Below, in pieces: positions 7,525 through 63,440 of a DNA stretch of 64,000 nt. Position 1 is the first letter of the stretch; each line of letters begins with the position of its first letter. The notes below the pieces were generated by a model. The model saw only the letters and a list, made by a program, of their open reading frames with translations. It made no database searches and was not told where the DNA came from. Source of the DNA: Candidatus Yonathbacteria bacterium. Its GTDB lineage: Bacteria > Patescibacteriota > Minisyncoccia > Phycocordibacterales > JACNGX01. The stretch covers positions 340,731 to 404,730 of the forward strand of contig JAAXWR010000001.1 of NCBI GenBank assembly GCA_013334825.1, in the 5' to 3' direction. The translations under genes and the position numbers were made by a program.

Positions 7525-7563
7525 TAATGAGAAAAATATTATACCCTATTCTTTTAAGGAGAA

Positions 7564-7680
7564 GGCCTTTGACCTCCGCATTGTCCCGATGAATTGTGGT
7601 GGACCCTACCGGATTTGAATCCCGAGCTTCGTGGAAGCCCGAGGACAGGCCTTTGACCTCCGCATTGTCCCGATGAATTG
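7564..7680 (-). repeat. Tandem duplicated 3'-half fragments of tRNA-Ala(TGC)
   Basis: Reading the minus strand after the tRNA CCA end: CAATTCATCGGGAC + AATGCGGAGGTCA + a 34-nt insert + TTCAAATCCGGTAGGGTCCACCA. Then CAATTCATCGGGAC+AATGCGGAGGTCAAAGGCC occurs again. This is a direct read of the sequence. Confidence 0.85.
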
Positions 7681-7756
7681 TGGTGGACCCTACCGGATTT
7701 GAACCGGTGACCTCCGCATTGCAAATGCGGCGCTCTACCAACTAAGCTAAGGGCCC
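7681..7756 (-). tRNA. tRNA-Ala(TGC)
   Basis: GGGCCCTTAGCTTAGTTGGTAGAGCGCCGCATTTGCAATGCGGAGGTCACCGGTTCAAATCCGGTAGGGTCCACCA. G3:U70 pair, anticodon loop TTTGCAA, CCA encoded. Confidence 0.95.
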
Positions 7757-10470: not shown

Positions 10471-11964
10471 ATGATGATGAAAAAAATTCTCTTCTTTTTG
10501 GCAATGCTCGCAGTCCTCTTTGCGGGGCCTGCCGAAGCCTTCAACAAAAAGGTATTCGTCAACGGGGAACCTGCTGTTGAGAACAGCATGCTCGGTACGA
10601 GTCAGGCTGTTTTCGAAAACCTGAAAAAGGGGGTTGCCGAGAATCCCGAAGGGGTCGTGAACGCCGTCGCCGATTTCCTCATCGCTGAGGAAGGATGCGC
10701 GGAAGGTGTCCGCGACATCATTCGCACCGAGCTCCCCAACATCCAGTGGGGTGAGCTTTCCGAAGCCAGTGGAGATCACATCAACATGGGCTTCAGAAAA
10801 AATGGCGGGTTTGCAAAAACCGGCGTCCTTGCAGTCAAAGGTGTGATTCCGGTCGGTATTCTTGAATTGAAAAACGTCCCCATGAAGGACGGTACGATGA
10901 TGAATGTCAAAGCGACCATGCCGGTCGCGTGCAGCAACCCTGATGCATCGAAGTCGCCCATACCGGTAGAGCTCCCCGTAGTTCCCCCGGTCATCGCGGT
11001 TGAAAAGACCCCTGCCATCGGTTTCGGTGTCGGACAGGCTTCAGCCGGTGTCTTCGAACACCAGGAGGCGTTCGTGCACGTGCCGATTGGCAACGACAGG
11101 AACTCCCTCCAGGGGTTCGATGCCGGCGTCCAGCGCTACACATCGCACGAACTGCTGCGTAGCTTCTCTACGCTGACCCATCAGGAACTCCGTCAGCGCG
11201 AAGCGACTCGCACCGTTTCCGTCCCCGTCGAAAAGACCGGATACAAGACCGTGACCAAGCATGTGGAAAAGAAGGTGGTCAAGCAGGTCCCGTACGAGGT
11301 CTGTGAGAAGGTCTGGGTGGCTTCCAAGGACAAGTGTGGCAAAGACACCGGTCACTGGGAGTACAAGAAGGTCACCAAGTATCGTGAGGAAATCGTGATC
11401 TGCACCTTTCCGGTACAGGTACAGGTTCCCTACACCTATACGGTGAACGAGCTCCAGACCGAAACATACATGGAGAACTATGTATACTCATGGGACGAAG
11501 AGGTCGAGAGTCGCTCGATTAAGTCGAGCGAGGTGTACGCACCATTTGTGCGCTACACCCACGCCTTCAACCTCGACAGGAAGAAGAACGTGCGCCTCGT
11601 GCCGTCTGCCTACGCCGCCTTCCCGGGACTCGTCGGTGACGATCTGTATGTCATCAACGGCCTCGAAAACCAGAAGGTGAACGTCGCCCTCGGACAGGAG
11701 TTGTCTTTCTACGTTAGCCTGACGGACAAGATGGCACTGGTACCAACCTGCGCGGTGCGTGAGTTCATGACCGCACAGGAAGGAACGCCCATGGCGCTCG
11801 AGCCCGGCCTGGCGGTCAGCGTTTTCCCCGCAAAAGGGTTGAACATCACCGGAAATGTCTCACACCAGACCATTTACGGTTTGTCGAAGACGAATGCTGT
11901 CGACGGCAGTAAGGACAACCGGGGCGGATGGCTCATCGGCGCAGGTCTCATGTACAACTTCTGA
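10471..11964 (+). CDS. Large secreted protein, possibly outer-membrane beta-barrel-like. It is compositionally foreign (GC-rich).
   Basis: Signal peptide MMMKKILFFLAMLAVLFAGPAEA. C-terminus ...GGWLIGAGLMYNF has alternating hydrophobic residues ending in Phe. GC is about 55-60% versus roughly 43% in the flanks. Confidence 0.7.
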   Translation: MMMKKILFFLAMLAVLFAGPAEAFNKKVFVNGEPAVENSMLGTSQAVFENLKKGVAENPEGVVNAVADFLIAEEGCAEGVRDIIRTELPNIQWGELSEASGDHINMGFRKNGGFAKTGVLAVKGVIPVGILELKNVPMKDGTMMNVKATMPVACSNPDASKSPIPVELPVVPPVIAVEKTPAIGFGVGQASAGVFEHQEAFVHVPIGNDRNSLQGFDAGVQRYTSHELLRSFSTLTHQELRQREATRTVSVPVEKTGYKTVTKHVEKKVVKQVPYEVCEKVWVASKDKCGKDTGHWEYKKVTKYREEIVICTFPVQVQVPYTYTVNELQTETYMENYVYSWDEEVESRSIKSSEVYAPFVRYTHAFNLDRKKNVRLVPSAYAAFPGLVGDDLYVINGLENQKVNVALGQELSFYVSLTDKMALVPTCAVREFMTAQEGTPMALEPGLAVSVFPAKGLNITGNVSHQTIYGLSKTNAVDGSKDNRGGWLIGAGLMYNF

Positions 11965-20989: not shown

Positions 20990-21340
20990 TGATGAGTTTC
21001 AAGTTGTCAGTTGCAAGAACGGTTACGAAGATTACGAATAACGAATGTATACAAATATACGAATATGACTTCTTTATTTTTATCATTTATAGTTTTCTCT
21101 TCCCATATTTCTCTTTTCTTATTTCATCGTCTATCGTTTATAGCTTTCGTCTTCATATTTCTTATTTCATCGTCTATAGTTTTCTTCTTCATTCGTATAT
21201 TCGTACGTATTCGTTATTCGTATGTTCATATTTCATCATTCGTCTTTCGTATTCTTGCTTCATACTTCGTGATTCGTGCTTCGAGCGTCTGTCCCTATCA
21301 CCTATAACCTCTCTCCTACATTCATCCCTCCCATCTTCTC
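20990..21340. repeat. Mosaic intergenic repeat cluster between atpA and atpG
   Basis: Modules GGTTACGAAG, TACGAATAACGAATGTATAC and CGTATATTCGTACGTATTCGTTATTCGTA (in inverted orientation), and GTCCCTATCACCTATAACC. Confidence 0.85.
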
Positions 21341-22881
21341 TAACCTCTTTCCTCTAACCTCTCTCCTGCATGCATCTTCAGAAGTTCACGAAGTCTTGTC
21401 TCAATATGTTCACTGAATGCACCTTCTTTCTTCATGGTCACAAGGATATCCGCATCTACCGTATGAATATATGAAAGAAGTGCATGTTCTGCTTTTCTTA
21501 CATCGTCTACGGCAATATCAGAAAAATATCCTTCAAGAAGAGCAAAAAAGATAAGTGCTTGTTCTTCATCGGCAAGTGGCGCGTATTGGTCTTGTTTCAA
21601 AATTTCCATGAGACGTTTGCCATGCTCAATACGTGTTCGTGTATCGTCATCGATATCCGAACCAAACTGTGCGAACGCAGCGAGTTCACGATATTGTGCC
21701 GCTTCAAGACGCATTTTACCCGCAACTTTTTTCATAAGTTTTGTTTGCGCGGAAGAACCGACACGTGACACTGAAAGTCCTGCATTGATGGCGGGACGCA
21801 TTCCTTGATGAAAGAGATCAGTCTCTAAATAAATCTGTCCATCAGTAATGGAAATAACGTTTGTCGGAATATATGCCGAAACATCACCTGCTTGTGTTTC
21901 AATAATAGGCAGTGCAGTGATAGAGCCACCGCCATGTGATGGGTCAAGACGACAGGCACGCTCAAGAAGTCGCGAGTGAAGATAAAACACATCACCTGGA
22001 TATGCCTCACGACCTGGTGGACGACGCAAAAGAAGTGACAATTCGCGATACGCCACAGCGTGCTTGGACAAATCATCGTATACCACAAGTACATCTCCCC
22101 CATTGTCGAGCATGTATTCAGCCATAGCGGTACCTGCATATGGCGCGATATAAGAAAGTGACGCAGGGTCAGATGCTCCCGCAAGAACAACTATTGTATA
22201 TGCCATGGCACCGTGTTCTTCGAGTTTGGCAACAATGCCCGCGATTTTTGATTCTTTTTGCCCGATTGCGACGTATACACAAGTAACGCCTTTTCCTTTT
22301 TGATTGATGATGGCATCAATCGCAACAGCAGTTTTTCCTGTTTGACGATCACCAATGATAAGTTCACGTTGTCCACGTCCAATCGGGACCATAGCGTCAA
22401 TCGCTTTGATACCCGTATGGAGTGGCACGGATACTGATTTGCGCGCAATGACACCTGGAGCGATATGTTCTACGGGATAAGAAACTTCATGACGTATAGG
22501 ACATTTCCCGTCAAGCGGTCGTCCCATAGGGTCAATCACGCGCCCCACCAGTGCATCTCCTACAGGAACACGCAAGACTTCTCCAGTCCCCTCTACTAGG
22601 TCCCCTTCTTTTACATGTATAGATTCACCTAATATAATTGCACCTATAGCATCTCTTTCCAGATTCAAAATCATTGCAGGTGTTTCGTGTGTACCATTGA
22701 CTGATGAAATAATAATCATTTCAGACATGCGCGCATCAGGAAGACCTGAAACAGAAACAATGCCGTCTTTAACCGACTCCACAATACCAATGGAACGGTC
22801 CGTCGCCTCAAGAGAAACGCCAGCGATACGACGTTTCAAATCTTCAATAATGGCATCAGTTGTATGGAGAGAGTGTGACAT
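21340..22881 (-). CDS. atpA: F0F1 ATP synthase alpha subunit
   Basis: GDRQTGKT Walker A and alpha-subunit core. Confidence 0.97.
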
Positions 22882-23809: not shown

Positions 23810-24256
23810 GTAATGTATGATAGTAAATGACGAGTTCGTAGTTCGTAGAAATTGCTGGAGAGATAGTGTTGTCTGTTAATATGATGTTTACGAATAACGA
23901 ATACGTACGAATCTACGAATGATACATAACATGTGTAGAAGAAACTTTTTATTCGTATATTTGCACACATTCGTTATTCGTATGTTCATATTTCTTAATT
24001 CACTTTTTATATTCGTGATTCCCCGCACTGTGCACCATGTGGGATGCACAGTGCGCCATGTAGGGTGCGGGGCAGGCGTACAAGTTCGTACTTCGTAATC
24101 TTTCATCTCGTCCGTCTCTATAACCTATCACCTCTAACCTATTTCCTACTTTCATCATTCATCTTTTGTATTCTTGATTCGTGCTTCATGATTCTTGATT
24201 CGAGTGTCCGTCCCTATAACCTCTTTCCTACATTCGTCCGTCCCTATCTCCTATAA
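23810..24256. repeat. Mosaic intergenic repeat cluster between atpF and atpE, with two GC-rich hairpins
   Basis: GTTCGTAGTTCGTAG, TACGAATAACGAATACGTACGAA, hairpins CGCACTGTGCACC..TGCACAGTGCG and GGGTGCGGGGCAGG, and an inverted GTCCGTCCCTATAACC twice. Confidence 0.85.
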
Positions 24257-26742: not shown

Positions 26743-26975
26743 TGCCTTCGCTAGAGTCTCAATATTGCATGACAAAAATATTTAGAAGCTTCGGCAAGGT
26801 AAGACAGGCGGCAAGCAAAGCAACTGCTTGCTTTGCGACAGGAATCGAACCGAGCACCACTTTTGATATTGCAAAAGTGGTGCTCGACATCCAGCGATAC
26901 TTATAAAAATGCGAGTGCTCGGAGTATTTTTGTTAGTAATCGCGGGACGATTCCTGTGCCGCCCACCTGCCTTCG
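26743..26975 (+). mobile_element. Mini-element at the tRNA-Val 3' end, bounded by a 27-bp direct repeat of the tRNA 3' end
   Basis: DR gattcctgtgccgcccacctgccttcg occurs at 26724-26750 and 26949-26975. The interior holds an 11-bp-stem hairpin (gcaagcaaagc/gcttgctttgc), an inverted tRNA T-arm fragment (ggaatcgaacc), a 14-bp inverted repeat cgagcaccactttt/aaaagtggtgctcg, and CGGGAC immediately before DR2. Confidence 0.6.
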
Positions 26976-33768: not shown

Positions 33769-33894
33769 CTTCGCCTTGCACTTTTTCGAAAAGCGCTTGG
33801 CTTCGCGGTACAGGTACACATATCATTGATTGTATATGAACATGGCGAAGTACTGTCCCGCAGAATTTGAGCAACGTGGGACTCGATAAAAAGT

Positions 33895-34035
33895 TTTTAT
33901 AGTTTACCGTTTATAGTTTTCGTCTCCATATTTCATATTTCTATTTTCGTATTTCATCGTCTATAGTTTTCGTCTTCATATTCCTTATTTCTATTTTCTT
34001 ATTTCATCGTTTATCATTTTTCTTTTTGTTGTTTA
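33895..34035. repeat. Mosaic repeat module (ATAGTTTTCGTCTTCATATT / TTATTTCATCGTCTATAG units)
   Basis: Inverted-orientation copy of the AAACGATAAACTATAAAAAGAAAA...ATGAAATAAGAA module seen at other loci. Confidence 0.75.
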
Positions 34036-34039
34036 TTAT

Positions 34040-34843
34040 TCATGTTCTTTTTTCAATCAATACCTTAATTTCAGACATCGCATCCTCCGTCGCTTTCTCC
34101 CCTATCGCAATCTTTTCTGCTCCATCAACAAAATTGAAAAAATCAAATACATCACTTGTATGCGTATCGATATCAATAACAATATCAGCATCTTCAACAT
34201 TTTGAAGCGCGAGGTGATACCGTAAAATATTCAACGAGTCATATGCGACGGTATACCATGCCGGCTTTTTCTTTTCATTGTAATAATGTTTGTCCAAATT
34301 CACCGCAATGACAATATCAGCGCCCATTTGACGGACGGTCTCGACAGGAACAGGTGCGGACAATCCACCATCAGCATAGACATGTCCATCAATTTCTTCT
34401 GACTTAAATGCAACAGGCACAGAAATACTCGCTCGTATAGCAGTCGCCATATCACCAGAATTGAATGCATGAAATACCCCTGTCTGCATATCAGTCGCAA
34501 TAGCAGAAAATGGGATAGGACAGTCTTCAAATGTATTTGCTTTCAACTCATGACGGATAAACTCTTTGACTTTATTACCTCCGATAAGTCCTCGTTTTAA
34601 TTTTGGATCCACCATGGCAAACATCATACGCCAGTCTGCATCCCATGAAATCTTTTCAATATCCTCTATAGAACGTCCCGACGCATACAGCCCCCCAATC
34701 ATGGCACCGATGCTTGAACCGGCAATCATATCAATCGGAATATTATGCGCGTGAAGTGCTTTGATAACACCAATATGCGCAAGGCCTTTTGACCCTCCGC
34801 TTCCTAATGCGAGTCCTACTTTCTGCCGTGTACGTGTATGCAT
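34040..34843 (-). CDS. Patatin-like phospholipase
   Basis: GLALGSGGSKGLAHIGV (GxGxxG), GSSIG (GxSxG) and DGG motifs. Confidence 0.88.
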   Translation of the reverse strand: MHTRTRQKVGLALGSGGSKGLAHIGVIKALHAHNIPIDMIAGSSIGAMIGGLYASGRSIEDIEKISWDADWRMMFAMVDPKLKRGLIGGNKVKEFIRHELKANTFEDCPIPFSAIATDMQTGVFHAFNSGDMATAIRASISVPVAFKSEEIDGHVYADGGLSAPVPVETVRQMGADIVIAVNLDKHYYNEKKKPAWYTVAYDSLNILRYHLALQNVEDADIVIDIDTHTSDVFDFFNFVDGAEKIAIGEKATEDAMSEIKVLIEKRT

Positions 34844-36404: not shown

Positions 36405-36780
36405 TCATTATAGACATAGTTGAGTGATAGTGTCAATGTTATAGGAGGAAAGAGGTAAAAGGAAATAGGTTATAGGGACGGACGAATATAGGAAAGAGGT
36501 TATAGGTGATAGGGACAGATATTCGAATCAAGAATCACGAATCAAGCGTGCCCTGCACCCTACGTGGTGCAGGGAATTAAGGGTTACGAAGTACGAACTT
36601 GTACGGTTGTCCTGCATCCTACATGGCGTGCTGTGCATCCTACGTGGTGCACAGTGCAGGGAATCACGAAGCAAGAAGAAAAACGATAAACGATGAAATA
36701 AGAAAATAGAAATATGGAGAAGAAAACTATACACGATAAACTTTTAACTACCTTGGGTTCTCAGATAAACACACCTATAT
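36405..36780. repeat. Mosaic intergenic repeat cluster downstream of uvrC
   Basis: GGTTATAGGGACGGAC, TCGAATCAAGAATCACGAATCAAG, hairpin CCCTGCACCCTACGTGGTGCAGGG (36551-36574) plus a second nested hairpin (36609-36665), GGGTTACGAAGTACGAAC, and AAACGATAAACGATGAAATAAGAAAATAGAAATA...ACGATAAACTTTTAACTA. Confidence 0.9.
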
Positions 36781-39316: not shown

Positions 39317-39329
39317 TTGGCAATATTTT

Positions 39330-39450
39330 ATTGGCTACGAAGTACGAACGAGTACGAACATACGAACATAAACTCACCAATATAATTATTTGTGTCCAGT
39401 TGTCTTCGTATGTTCGTATAAGTTCGTACTTCGTAGCCCCATATTGTTAA
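39330..39450. repeat. Approximately 120-bp inverted-repeat module of the TACGAA repeat family
   Basis: ggctacgaagtacgaacgagtacgaacatacgaac ... gttcgtatgttcgtataagttcgtacttcgtagcc. Confidence 0.8.
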
Positions 39451-42099: not shown

Positions 42100-42260
42100 A
42101 AGTGAGGAATTAGGTTATAGGTGTGAGGAATATAGGGTTACGAAGTACGAACTTATATGCTTGCCCTGCACCCCACGTGGTGCAGGGAACATACGAAACG
42201 TGACGGGAATTATGAATATAAAGAAAAATATACATGATAGACTTTTAACTATCAAAAGAC
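42100..42260. repeat. Mosaic intergenic repeat upstream of uvrA
   Basis: GGTTATAGG, GGGTTACGAAGTACGAAC, hairpin CCCTGCACCCCACGTGGTGCAGGG (42164-42187), ATAGACTTTTAACTA. Confidence 0.88.
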
Positions 42261-42526
42261 CTGCGGGGTAAAAATTTGAAACAAAAATCAAGAGCCGGAA
42301 GAAAGGATTAAAATAAACTGCAACATAGTCCACGTATTCTTGATTCGTGATTTGTTATTCTTGCTTCCTGTTTGCACGCCGACTGCCCGCGCGAACGTCG
42401 CACGGGTTTGTGTATCTCCAGTATAGCGGAAAGGAGAGAAAAAAGAAGTGTTGACTTTATTTATAAAACATGATATACAAAAACCTGTTCATTTTGTTCT
42501 TCTTCAAAATCAAAACGTAAAAAGCC

Positions 42527-51889: not shown

Positions 51890-52270
51890 AGCTTGTAGGG
51901 ATAGACGAATGTAGGAAAGAGGTTATAGGATAGAGGTGATAGGGACGGACACTCGAATCAAGAATTAAGGGTTACGAAGTACGAACGAGTACGAACATAC
52001 GAAACGAGGCTGGAATTAAGAAATATGAACATGCGAATAACGAATGTGTACGAATATACGAATGATGAAGAAACGATAAACTATAAAAAGAAAAAACGAT
52101 AGACGATGAAATAAGAACATACGAATAACGAATGTATACGCGTGCCCCGCACCCCACGTGGTGCTGGGGAATATACGAATAAAAAACTTCTCTTTGTATA
52201 CTCTTTAAATGTCATTCGTAGATTCGTACGTATTCGTTATTCGTAAACATTCGTTATTCGTAAACATTCA
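51890..52270. repeat. Mosaic intergenic repeat cluster (full-length copy plus inverted partial copy)
   Basis: GGTTATAGGATAGAGGTGATAGGGACGGACACTCGAATCAAGAAT, GGGTTACGAAGTACGAACGAGTACGAACATACGAAACG, ACGAATAACGAATGT, AAACGATAAACTATAAAAAGAAAAAACGATAGACGATGAAATAAGAA, hairpin CCCCGCACCCCACGTGGTGCTGGGG (52145-52169), then an inverted CGTACGTATTCGTTATTCGTAAACATTCGTTATTCGTA. Confidence 0.9.
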
Positions 52271-54722: not shown

Positions 54723-55010
54723 CAAATGTAAAACGGCCTTATGGGCCGTTTTACATTTGTTGCCAGAAGCAGGGCGACTGCTCGCCCTGCGACTAGGACT
54801 CGAACGGCTCGGCGATGTCGGACCGAGCACCACTTACAAAAAATTCCTAAAAAGTGTTAGAGATATTTTCCAAATAATAAAGCCTCTCTATGATGTTATC
54901 TGAAAGTGGTGCTCGAGACGACCGCGAGCCGCGTCCAGGAGTACTTTGCGTATTGCGAATACTTGGAGCAATACGCTTAGTAACTCCGGGACGAGTCCTA
55001 GTCTGGCAAC
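54723..55010 (+). mobile_element. Mini-element at the tRNA-Gln 3' end bounded by an 18-bp direct repeat of the tRNA 3' end. It is homologous to the tRNA-Val element.
   Basis: DR gagtcctagtctggcaac occurs at 54705-54722 and 54993-55010. The interior holds a perfect 16-bp-stem hairpin (caaatgtaaaacggcc/ggccgttttacatttg), the hairpin cagggcgactgctcgccctg, an inverted tRNA-Gln T-arm fragment (gactaggactcgaac), an inverted repeat ggaccgagcaccactt...aagtggtgctcgag, and CGGGAC immediately before DR2. Confidence 0.6.
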
Positions 55011-55085
55011 TCCATAAAAAAATTAAAATATCAATACAAGCCTCCTCTCGCAACTTCCACCCACACAGAGTATACTAGACGACAT

Positions 55086-58560: not shown

Positions 58561-58591
58561 ACAAAAAACGGCGTGCTAGAGCGCCGTTTTG
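58561..58591 (-). terminator. Hairpin terminator
   Basis: acggcg-tgctagag-cgccgt flanked by A and T runs. Confidence 0.65.
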
Positions 58592-59104
58592 ATATCGGGA
58601 AGGAATTTTTTTACAAGAGCAAAATCCTCGTTAAAGGAAGAGCTCAGTGATAGAGGGCAACTGAGTGAACAATATACCCCATCACCATCGTAGCCATTGA
58701 TACTCCACGAAAAAAAACTTCCATAAAAAGTCGCAAGGAAAATTCTTTTCTTGGAAAGACTGTCCTCAATCCCTTTTTCAAGAAAACAAACACGAAACTT
58801 CCCTTCTTCAACATAAGTCGGATCAACAATTTCCAGTGCGACAGGCAACTGTATCTCAGCAGCGAGCATACAGAGCGCAGTCATTTGATTGCCCCAGAAA
58901 TGAAGTGTTGTAGGAGCCCAAGAATCAAGCTCTTCACCGATAGGATTCCCCGAAGCGACAGATGTGGGATCAACCCCAGACGAGCGAAGAAACGTTTCCC
59001 ATGCGGCACGCGGTTCGATCTTCGCATAATTGATGTAAAACGCACTGAGAAGCTCAGAATAATCCGTACGGATACCGAGCGAAATAATCGATGTTCTTTT
59101 TTTC
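58576..59104 (-). CDS. Hypothetical protein
   Basis: The ORF-track start is a TTG. The first ATG is at 59104 (MKKRTSII...). Confidence 0.4.
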
Positions 59105-59191
59105 ATACTGTATTTATGTAATTGCAGAGTCAACACCTCCCTTTTATTATCACACTTATTCAACTTTGTAAACCAAACAAAAAGAGGCCGT

Positions 59192-59689
59192 TTAGGCCCC
59201 TATACCCTTCTGCACAAGATAGTTCATCCACGTACGGAGATTTACCTTGAACTGGTCAGGGGTATCGCGAATGTTATAACACATACCCGGGGTACCCCAA
59301 TATCTATCCCCCAGCCTGAAATCCAGACCGTTTTGTGTGAATATGACAGTAAGGATTCTCCCTGCACTGTCATCTTCCCGTTCGGAAATATCGAAATCTT
59401 TCTCCAGGAAATACACATGTACTTCGGAACAAAGAGTCTCATCTTCAGGGATGACAACATACAGTCCAAGAGGAATGTCCATAAACATGCCAATTTCACA
59501 CATTTTGACGATGAACTCCCCGTGTTTTTCATACACAGAAGAAATTGGGCCGAACTCGAGGCCGAAGCTTGCAATAAACTTTGCTTTTTTCATTCTTGCA
59601 GCTTCCTCATCAGTTCGCTGGCAGTACCCGACAAAATCACTCGCTTTCTTGCGGTGAAATTCGGGAGTTCCACTTAATATTCTCTTCAT
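59192..59689 (-). CDS. Hypothetical protein
   Basis: ORF of 165 aa. GAGGA lies 5 nt before the ATG. Confidence 0.5.
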   Translation of the reverse strand: MKRILSGTPEFHRKKASDFVGYCQRTDEEAARMKKAKFIASFGLEFGPISSVYEKHGEFIVKMCEIGMFMDIPLGLYVVIPEDETLCSEVHVYFLEKDFDISEREDDSAGRILTVIFTQNGLDFRLGDRYWGTPGMCYNIRDTPDQFKVNLRTWMNYLVQKGIGA

Positions 59690-60307: not shown

Positions 60308-60334
60308 CAAAAACTCCGCTTACGCGGAGTTTTT
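60308..60334 (-). terminator. Rho-independent terminator of rnpB
   Basis: aactccgc-gtaa-gcggagtt flanked by A5 and T5. It lies about 10 nt beyond the RNase P RNA 3' end. Confidence 0.8.
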
Positions 60335-60343
60335 GATATATGA

Positions 60344-60860
60344 AGGACCGTATCTATAAGCCGGATTCTGTCTCGACATGACGTCGCAAAGGATATCAGG
60401 TCAAGGACAACGATTTATCTGGGACGTACGTCACCGCACGCCTCAAGCGGCACTCAAAGCATCATAGTGATGCCCAGCACGGCCTTGCACACAGGTAAGG
60501 ATTTAGCCGTTTCACCTCTTGCGTTACCGCAAGAACTAGTCCAGCCCCACTTTTGGTCATATGTACATATACACACGTCTCTCAATGAACATCATGACTT
60601 GTGCATACTATTCGACCAAAAGTGGAGCTGGAATCCGATTTCTTTCGAAATACGGCGTCTCTGCTCGCACCTCTTCGAACCCTTCGATCCGATGACAGGC
60701 GTTACCTGCTACCTATGACATACACCACGAAGATTACATGCCAAGCCATTTGTACACCACAAAGCGTGTACAGACCTGCCATGCACCCTACGTGGTGCAT
60801 GGTGTGTCCGGACTTTCCTCTGTCACAAAAAGCAACAGCCGTTGTCCAATACGGTATGTC
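60344..60860 (-). ncRNA. rnpB: RNase P RNA (bacterial type A) carrying an approximately 88-nt insertion between P4 and P5/P7 and an extended P12
   Basis: Minus-strand motifs: GAGGAAAGTCCGGAC (P4 5' strand), CATAGGTAGCAGGTAACGCCTG, GCGAGCAGAGA, GAGGTGAAACGG, TGCAAGGCC, GCTTGAGG and ACAGAATCCGGCTTAT (P4 3' strand). P1 is ACCGTAT/ATACGGT and P2 is GGACAACG/CGTTGTCC. Confidence 0.9.
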
Positions 60861-60863
60861 ATT

Positions 60864-60892
60864 ATTATATCAAAAATCAGCTAAAAAGTCAA
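60864..60892 (-). promoter_or_regulatory. Consensus sigma70 promoter of rnpB
   Basis: On the minus strand TTGACT, a 17-nt spacer, then TATAAT, about 7 nt upstream of the predicted RNA 5' end. Confidence 0.7.
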
Positions 60893-63140: not shown

Positions 63141-63144
63141 GGTA

Positions 63145-63440
63145 GGAAAGAGATTAGAGGAGATAGGTTATAGGGACGGATACTCGAAGCACGAATCACG
63201 AAGTATGAATCAAGAATACGAACAGACTCGAAATTAGAAATATGAAATTAGGAATATGAACATACGAATAACAAATGTGTACGCCTGCCCCGCACCCTAC
63301 GTGGTGCTGGGGAATGTACGAATAACGAAGAAACGATAAACTATAAAAAGAAAAAACTATAGACAATGAAATAAGAAAATAGAAATAAGGAATATGGGAA
63401 GAGAAAACTAGAGACGATAAACTTTTAACTATAAAAATAT
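63145..63440. repeat. Mosaic intergenic repeat cluster between ftsQ and serS
   Basis: GGTTATAGGGACGGATACTCGAAGCACGAATCACGAAG, ACGAATAACAAATGTGTAC, hairpin CCCCGCACCCTACGTGGTGCTGGGG, AAACGATAAACTATAAAAAGAAAAAACTATAGACAATGAAATAAGAAAATAGAAATA, and GACGATAAACTTTTAACTA. Confidence 0.9.

Follow-up and report, generated by a model that had tools for sequence, protein, structure and literature searches.

Repeats inside rnpB, the gene for RNase P RNA, are already known from Rickettsia and from cyanobacteria. In cyanobacteria, STRR repeats sit in P12 of rnpB. These STRRs are tandem heptamers that form a genome-wide short repeat family with members within rnpB (Vioque 1997, as cited in PMC2858038). The Candidatus Yonathbacteria locus described here shares this last property, whereas its unit is palindromic and located at the P5/P7 junction. 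Rickettsia palindromic elements (RPEs) have been reported inside stable-RNA genes, namely those of tmRNA and of M1 RNA, the RNA of RNase P (Ogata et al. 2002, as reviewed in PMC2229807). In Rickettsia as in the present genome, a dispersed palindromic repeat of the host occurs as a stem-loop inside an essential stable-RNA gene, rnpB included, where it is presumed to be tolerated. However, RPEs measure 105-146 bp and many lie in frame within protein-coding genes (as summarised in PMC2229807), whereas the unit in this study comprises 28-37 nt within an 84-nt rod and belongs to another phylum. Unlike the RPE case, the event reported here was caught as a difference between near-identical genomes. 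New to the present case are the phylum, the very small unit, the site, and the clear before/after comparison.

REP and REPIN elements are mobilised by RAYT transposases, RAYT being a Y1 transposase. The Yonathbacteria unit is similar to these elements, which are imperfect palindromes of 20-40 nt confined to spacers, vary in copy number between strains and lack a target-site duplication. In contrast to REP elements, the GTAG motif of the unit is found in the loop and not 5' of the stem, and only a handful of copies are present in 64 kb.

In type A RNase P RNA of E. coli, the 5' strand of P6 sits in the P5/P7 junction. Type A RNAs are defined by the presence of P6, P16 and P17 and by the absence of P5.1, P10.1, P15.1 and P15.2 (PMC7191817), and P5.1 is a hallmark and key structural strut of type B (PMC5066622). 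The RNase P RNAs of CPR bacteria have diverged; they fall below Rfam thresholds, and some of their helices are greatly extended and others missing (Lui et al. 2021, PMC8172020). The RNA under study resembles them in its sub-threshold score and its extended and missing helices. Nevertheless, the accessible portion of that report does not tie the extensions to dispersed repeats and describes no lineage-wide helix between P5 and P7 (PMC8172020).

Identification of the RNase P RNA gene

The window, namely the whole stretch of 64,000 nt analysed here (assembly GCA_013334825.1), comes from a member of the Paceibacteria (CPR); the relatives of DusB, which is encoded next to rnpB, were without exception Patescibacteria/CPR. 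The window was scanned with Rfam models. At the gathering cut-off, tRNAs alone were reported and rnpB was missed, because its score against RF00010 (RNaseP_bact_a) was 90.9 bits and the cut-off of this family is 100 bits. In a permissive scan, RF00010 was matched end to end on the minus strand (model positions 1-367, E=3.8e-28). As regards membership in class A, the gene thus falls short of the 100-bit threshold and is matched over its full length, including the universally conserved core and the two strands of P4; GAGGAAAGUCCGG and ACAGAAUCCGGCUUA are both found. The scores of two relatives were 105 bits (L001) and 59.6 bits (L005). A preliminary description of the locus had listed type A landmarks, every quoted string of which is present in the sequence, and had proposed an RNA of ~515 nt at 60344-60860; the full-length gene was borne out, with an exact RF00010 span of 60341-60857 (517 nt). 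The RF00010 alignment left a block of 126 nt unaligned directly 3' of P5 and outside P3, indicating that the extra nucleotides were not absorbed by P3. Because this block was left unaligned, P7-P9 were garbled in the alignment.

The promoter-like site upstream of the gene agreed with the consensus at 11/12 positions, was the sole site in the 800-nt region scanned, and ended 7 nt ahead of the first RF00010-aligned base. A terminator-like hairpin was read from the sequence just past the 3' end; it was not called by the pattern scanner. The coordinates of all features are compiled in Table 1.

Table 1 Features of the rnpB locus and copies of the palindromic unit in the window.
Feature	Position	Strand	Evidence or remark
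rnpB, RNase P RNA gene, type A-like, 517 nt	60341-60857	minus	RF00010 match; identical copy in L123
P4 5' strand, GAGGAAAGUCCGG	60808-60820	minus	sequence and RF00010 alignment
P4 3' strand, ACAGAAUCCGGCUUAU	60356-60371	minus	sequence and RF00010 alignment
Promoter-like site: TTGACT, 17-nt spacer, TATAAT, TG before the -10 hexamer	60864-60892	minus	pattern scan
Terminator-like hairpin ACUCCGC-GUAA-GCGGAGU followed by a U run	60309-60334	minus	read from sequence; just past rnpB 3' end
84-nt rod between P5 and P7 (P5.1 position), genome-specific	60719-60802	minus	fold prediction and relatives
91-nt S-domain rod, P13 position, arms CCAGCUCCACUUUUGG / CCAAAAGUGGGGCUGG	60541-60631	minus	single helix, -45.8 kcal/mol
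Unit copy in rnpB; 28-nt core (60775-60802) = base of the rod 5' arm	60768-60804	minus	R1 39 bits
Unit in uvrB-uvrA spacer	42153-42189	minus	R1 51.9 bits
Unit	52134-52170	minus	R1 51.3 bits; degenerate, oppositely oriented copy elsewhere in the sister spacer
Unit in serS-orf327 spacer	63277-63313	minus	R1 50.9 bits; orthologous L109 spacer without a copy
Unit	36540-36576	minus	R1 47.7 bits
Unit, part of nested double-hairpin variant	36621-36656	minus	R1 46.9 bits
Unit, part of nested double-hairpin variant, opposite orientation	24047-24083	plus	R1 47.1 bits

A long helix between P5 and P7

The extra sequence between P5 (CACA) and P7 comprises 84 nt as a helix, or 89 nt when counted from P5 to the P7 strand. 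An insertion of ~88 nt between P4 and P5/P7 had been described previously; the extra nucleotides are real, but they are located between P5 and P7, amount to 84-89 nt, and take the place of a native hairpin of ~20 nt. The 84-nt segment was predicted to form a single hairpin of 33 bp (28 Watson-Crick and 5 G-U pairs) with a folding energy of -47 kcal/mol (z=-6.55), and the same rod appeared in the minimum-energy fold of the entire rnpB RNA. Alternative folds in which the small repeat hairpin was enforced had an energy of -33.4 kcal/mol at best. The two separate hairpins envisaged in the preliminary description reached -24.4 kcal/mol, and this model was rejected on energy in favour of the rod.

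The 3' arm of the rod resembles a degenerate inverted copy of the 5' arm. Several differences between the arms yield G-U pairs, which is what one would expect if pairing had been kept at the RNA level. When the whole gene was compared with the 64-kb window by BLAST, similarity was confined to rnpB nt 56-83, extending at most to nt 91, and 55-56 of the 84 nt of the rod had no other match in the window. This remaining sequence appears to be largely an imperfect complement of the repeat part, an origin suggested by its self-complementarity alone. Because the rest of the rod complements its first part, the transcript should fold into one long peripheral helix. Besides RNase P, the permissive Rfam scan returned only weak microRNA-like hairpin matches for the rods.

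Comparison with related genomes

A search for the rnpB genes of relatives through dusB-rnpB synteny in 80 genomes yielded two loci only (L001 and L005). Exact-sequence look-ups of the DusB and DnaX proteins of the window gave no hit. Further genes were obtained by a metagenome scan with an invariant 23-mer (28 loci), and further loci by a look-up of DusB and UvrB homologues (L109, L110, L112 and L115-L123). The closest relative available was L109/L110, together with L091/L104 from other samples (DusB 92% and UvrB ~100% identical), hereafter referred to as the sister. The rnpB of L109/L110 was 92% identical to that of the window over aligned columns, including the 91-nt S-domain rod. At the P5/P7 site, the sister (L109/L110) contains the 20-nt hairpin UGUCGCGC-UCGC-GCGCGGCA, and the outgroup (L112, GCA_013335575.1; DusB 80% identical) contains the 20-nt hairpin CGUCGCGC-GCGA-GCGCGGCA. 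The presence of a short GC hairpin in both demonstrates that the 84-nt rod, found in neither L109/L110 nor L112, is derived and specific to the window genome, with a net gain of ~64 nt over the native ~20-nt hairpin.

Between the window and L109, 5 substitutions were counted among 143 unpaired positions of rnpB, and 12 changed pairs in its helices still pair, 2 of them through changes on both sides; these are rough figures, as the energy-only fold mispredicts parts of the RNA. Such a pattern would fit a functional rnpB. Furthermore, the window contains extra small ORFs between rnpB and dnaX (58576-59689, compared with 6624-6710 in L109), which are missing from the sister; they encode 165 and 195 aa in the ORF list of the window, and 146, 165 and 176 aa as called in L123. 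The absence of these ORFs from the sister indicates that the rnpB-dnaX neighbourhood is more variable than the uvrB region, in line with the DusB and UvrB identities (92% vs ~100%).

The lineage has a native helix at the P5.1 position. All the distinct lineage rnpB sequences (23/23) have a closed hairpin that starts no more than 2 nt from P5 (CACA) and whose end is 4-5 nt away from P7. Pairing is preserved in every case, although there is hardly any sequence similarity among these hairpins. Their length is mostly 13-30 nt and their loop often of the GNRA type; L095 (84 nt), L086 (85 nt) and L005 (289 nt) have long forms. Since the hairpin is native in every one of these sequences, the rod replaced or expanded a helix and did not create one. 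The earlier suggestion that a repeat had entered the ribozyme as a P5.1-like helix is accordingly supported, with the change that a helix was already there.

Judged by inspection and not by a pseudoknot-aware model, P15-P17 form one unbranched hairpin, the loop of which has ~3 nt in the window and frequently 4 nt elsewhere in the lineage. With an unbranched P15-P17 and so small a loop, the type A P6 pseudoknot looks impossible. Measured against the definition of type A, a P6 between the P5/P7 junction and the P17 loop was thus not seen on inspection, and the interval between P5 and P7, which is free of a helix in type A, contains a hairpin throughout. The lineage, which apparently lacks the P6 pseudoknot, shares with type B a helix between P5 and P7 (PMC5066622, PMC7191817). 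In type B, however, P5.1 makes a conserved L5.1-L15.1 contact and is accompanied by P10.1, P15.1 and P15.2 (PMC5066622, PMC7191817), whereas in the Yonathbacteria RNA the loop and the length of the helix are unconstrained, no P15.1 partner was identified, P10.1, P15.1 and P15.2 were not recognised, the S-domain is type A-like, and the GGUAAC hairpin was aligned to P14. On the published A/B definitions and with the junction hairpin, the lineage has a type A-like S-domain plus a helix at the P5.1 position. This helix, the apparent lack of P6 and inserts such as the rod help to explain why the gene escapes the Rfam type A model at its threshold, a point of importance for annotation and genome-completeness checks.

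The base of the rod belongs to a dispersed palindromic family

The rod contains the 24-nt hairpin CCATGCACCCTACGTGGTGCATGG (plus strand, 60779-60802), which had been regarded as the dispersed repeat of the genome. The core motif TGCACCNNACGTGGTGCA occurred 7 times in the window with no more than 2 mismatches, compared with 0.01 occurrences expected by chance. A covariance model of 37 positions (R1) was trained on 8 dispersed copies, which did not include the one in rnpB, and it matched the latter over positions 1-37 of 37 with 39 bits (E=3.3e-8); the training copies scored 47-52 bits. The likeness is therefore significant when scored by a model that had not been given the rnpB copy, and the previous identification was upheld. 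The first 28 nt of the rnpB insert agree with the unit at 42159-42186 at 24/28 positions, including a compensatory change from C-G to A-U in the stem.

In the uvrB-uvrA spacer, the window and L121 (SRR11449211) have exactly 28 extra nt, CCCTGCACCACGTGGGGTGCAGGGCAAG, that are missing from the sister genome L115, and the flanks are 97% identical. The unit was thus gained or lost as such between near-identical genomes. The filled and empty uvrB-uvrA sites differ by exactly 28 nt and show no visible target-site duplication, nor was a transposase seen. With no duplicated flank at this site, the unit does not conform to a MITE, which is characterised by terminal inverted repeats and a target-site duplication.

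Matches to R1 numbered 7 in the 64 kb of the window, 1 in the sampled sequence of the sister (~25-30 kb, an estimate) and 0 in the 43 kb of the outgroup. The degenerate copy in a spacer of the sister indicates that the unit family predates the split between window and sister. Taken together, the comparison of the rnpB site, the 28-nt indel and the falling density of units (window > sister > outgroup) indicate that the repeat entered rnpB and not the reverse; for the sequences compared, this polarity can be regarded as settled.

The dispersed copies share flanks with one another that are missing from rnpB. The rnpB copy lacks the TTCGTA-type, heptamer-rich surroundings of the dispersed units, and only GUACAC..UUUGU follows it. 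Heptamer-like mosaics (TTCGTAx, TTATTTC, CCTATAAC) recur between many spacers, with the 28-nt units sitting inside them, and were seen at 21000-21400, 23880-24230, 33877-34062, 36480-36750, 39328-39435, 42120-42370, 51911-52262 and 63142-63431. These motifs are common to the sister strain and, in part, to the outgroup. A nested or double-hairpin variant of the unit, CCCYGCAC-UGUGCACCAYGURGGAUGCACAG-YRCGCCAUGUAGGRUGCRGGR, was present at 24026-24083 and 36605-36660 and looks like a hairpin inserted or duplicated within another.

The long S-domain helix

Across the lineage, the invariant GAGGUGCGAGCAGAGAC of the S-domain precedes three hairpins whose order is constant, the first with a GAAA loop, the second differing greatly in length, and the third with a GGUAAC loop (P14 according to Rfam). 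The 91-nt rod is the middle of these three hairpins. A helix of ~130 nt extending P12 had been assumed here; the P12 label was rejected on position, and the helix measures 91 nt, occupies the P13 position and is also present in the closest relative. The name P13 is itself uncertain, because the Rfam alignments of the window and L001 disagree on P9/P12/P13; the P10/P11 strands are nearly invariant in the sampled relatives. Being nearly identical in L109 and L091, the S-domain rod is older than the P5/P7 rod. It had no other match in the window when the whole gene was used as the BLAST query.

In some relatives, the S-domain is expanded by a recurring module that is missing from the window. One or two copies of GUGCUAA-(hairpin)-CGCACGAACAUU..AAUGUUUUAGUG are located between the GGUAAC hairpin and GUGAAACGG in the rnpB of L112 (13868-14413), L086 and L005.

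Proposed explanation and alternatives

The native ~20-nt hairpin between P5 and P7 was replaced in recent time by an 84-nt rod that begins with a repeat and is probably tolerated as a neutral extension of the mature RNA. A small palindromic unit has been multiplying in the spacers of the genome, and a copy of it makes up the first 28-37 nt of the rod. Entry might have occurred by insertion or gene conversion, to be followed by fold-back duplication and compensatory drift. The rod leaves the catalytic core untouched and, as far as can be judged from the gene, would most likely be retained in the mature RNA and be functionally neutral; the site accommodates long helices in other species too. An 84-nt helix that distinguishes two near-identical genomes at a single, defined position in an essential ribozyme represents a natural experiment, which makes the tolerance of this site directly testable. 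Moreover, a 28-nt palindromic unit has been gained or lost in a CPR genome, of a kind usually called streamlined.

Intervening sequences are excised from some bacterial 23S rRNAs. The rRNA genes of CPR bacteria carry insertions, and RNase P RNA can be reconstituted from fragments. By analogy, the rod could be an intervening sequence that RNase III cuts out, in which case the RNase P RNA would consist of two pieces joined through its other helices. With its length and near-perfect pairing, the stem is a plausible RNase III substrate, and L095, L086 and L005 have helices of comparable length at this site. However, the short hairpins of most relatives point to a continuous chain as the norm, G-U pairs and bulges interrupt the helix, and the sequence bears no marks of a cleavage site, so that excision is considered improbable.

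A similarly low probability is assigned to a functional hairpin, which might act as a protein-binding site, a docking element or a replacement strut at P5.1, with a factor shared by the RNase P, tRNA-linked and spacer copies. The stems of the unit vary by compensatory changes, the arms of the related rod module were restricted, in 1.09 Mb, to rnpB and the neighbourhood of tRNA genes (none in shuffled controls), and P5.1 is a key strut in type B RNAs (PMC5066622). Nevertheless, the sister lacks the unit in rnpB and at two spacer sites, loop sequence and helix length are unconstrained at this site across the lineage, and the unit's own hairpin is not formed in the favoured fold. The association with rnpB and tRNA genes is, in addition, biased by loci that were sampled around rnpB and dusB.

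An origin of the repeat family from rnpB, with a segment of the ribozyme copied into spacers, had been offered as an alternative in the preliminary description and is highly improbable. The native hairpin of L001, CCAAGCACC-AUGAU-GGUGCUCGG, does resemble the stem of the unit. However, an unrelated short GC hairpin occupies the site in the closest relative and the outgroup, the sister has a family member in a spacer and none in its rnpB, spacers gain or lose the unit as a discrete segment of 28 nt, and the flanks shared by the dispersed copies are missing from rnpB; on these grounds the idea was rejected. An assembly artefact, in the form of a mis-join through the dispersed repeat of a metagenome-assembled genome, is scarcely conceivable and was rejected too, as the sequence is back in rnpB register after 84 nt and an independent assembly of another sequencing run (L123, SRR11449212) shows 100% identity throughout rnpB, insert included.

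Rod modules in other helices and beside tRNA genes

The arms of the S-domain rod belong to a module of the form CC-N-AGCACCACUUUUG / CAAAAGUGGUGCU-N-GG. In Paceibacteria, this module occupies differing rnpB helices according to species, namely P3, a P16-like helix, a 3' helix and the middle hairpin of the S-domain. It was matched 17 times in 1.09 Mb and 0 times in shuffled controls, and outside rnpB it was found only just downstream of tRNA genes; the loci had been sampled around rnpB and dusB, which biases the apparent association with rnpB and tRNA genes. Sites in the window were 60541-60631, 26853-26884 and 54826-54913. Elsewhere, the module was located at L106 11436-11892, L001 5772-5815, L005 7224-7267 and 9213-9243, L112 14250-14291, and L094 4901-5005. 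L106 has three copies within one rnpB and a fourth just upstream of or overlapping its 5' end.

Similarity between the 28-nt unit and the rod arms was 16/22 for the window against a background of 7-15, which is only suggestive of a relationship. The unit and the rod might form one family of RNA modules that has colonised peripheral helices of RNase P RNA and tRNA-linked blocks and is recognised by a common factor, although this appears unlikely. The helices concerned would be P3, P5.1, P13, a P16-like helix and a 3' helix in different species, and the blocks would be tRNA-like and located at tRNA 3' ends. If such a family existed, the factor could be a mobilising enzyme, or an RNA-binding protein that, in Yonathbacteria and related Paceibacteria, connects RNase P with its substrates.

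The tRNA-linked blocks are 230-290 nt long and were found at 26743-26975 (after tRNA-Val) and 54724-55012 (after tRNA-Gln) in the window, and at ~8950-9346 in L109 and 9102-9270 in L005. Within each block, the 3' acceptor strand and the T-arm of the tRNA are repeated in antisense, there are three hairpins with the rod in the middle, and the tRNA 3' end is present in a second, direct copy; the fold of the blocks is closed and branched (-100 and -147 kcal/mol). They differ between the window and the sister, in which the same tRNA-Gln is followed by a tandem pair of blocks, one being truncated. This arrangement looks like the outcome of serial small integrations that would regenerate the tRNA end. 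Another rearrangement of a tRNA 3' end, without a rod, is an exact direct duplication of 57 nt (7563-7619 and 7647-7703, 84 nt apart) covering the 3' part of tRNA-Ala(UGC), which is encoded at 7681-7756 on the minus strand, and its flank.

Close to rnpB, the segment 60993-61124 is composed of ~12 repeats with an 11-nt period (TTCCGCGTAGG-like, with CCGC phased at one helical turn). This array covers the 3'-terminal part of dusB together with the region preceding the rnpB promoter, and a similar CCGC-periodic stretch was observed in the L109 spacer at ~11560-11600.
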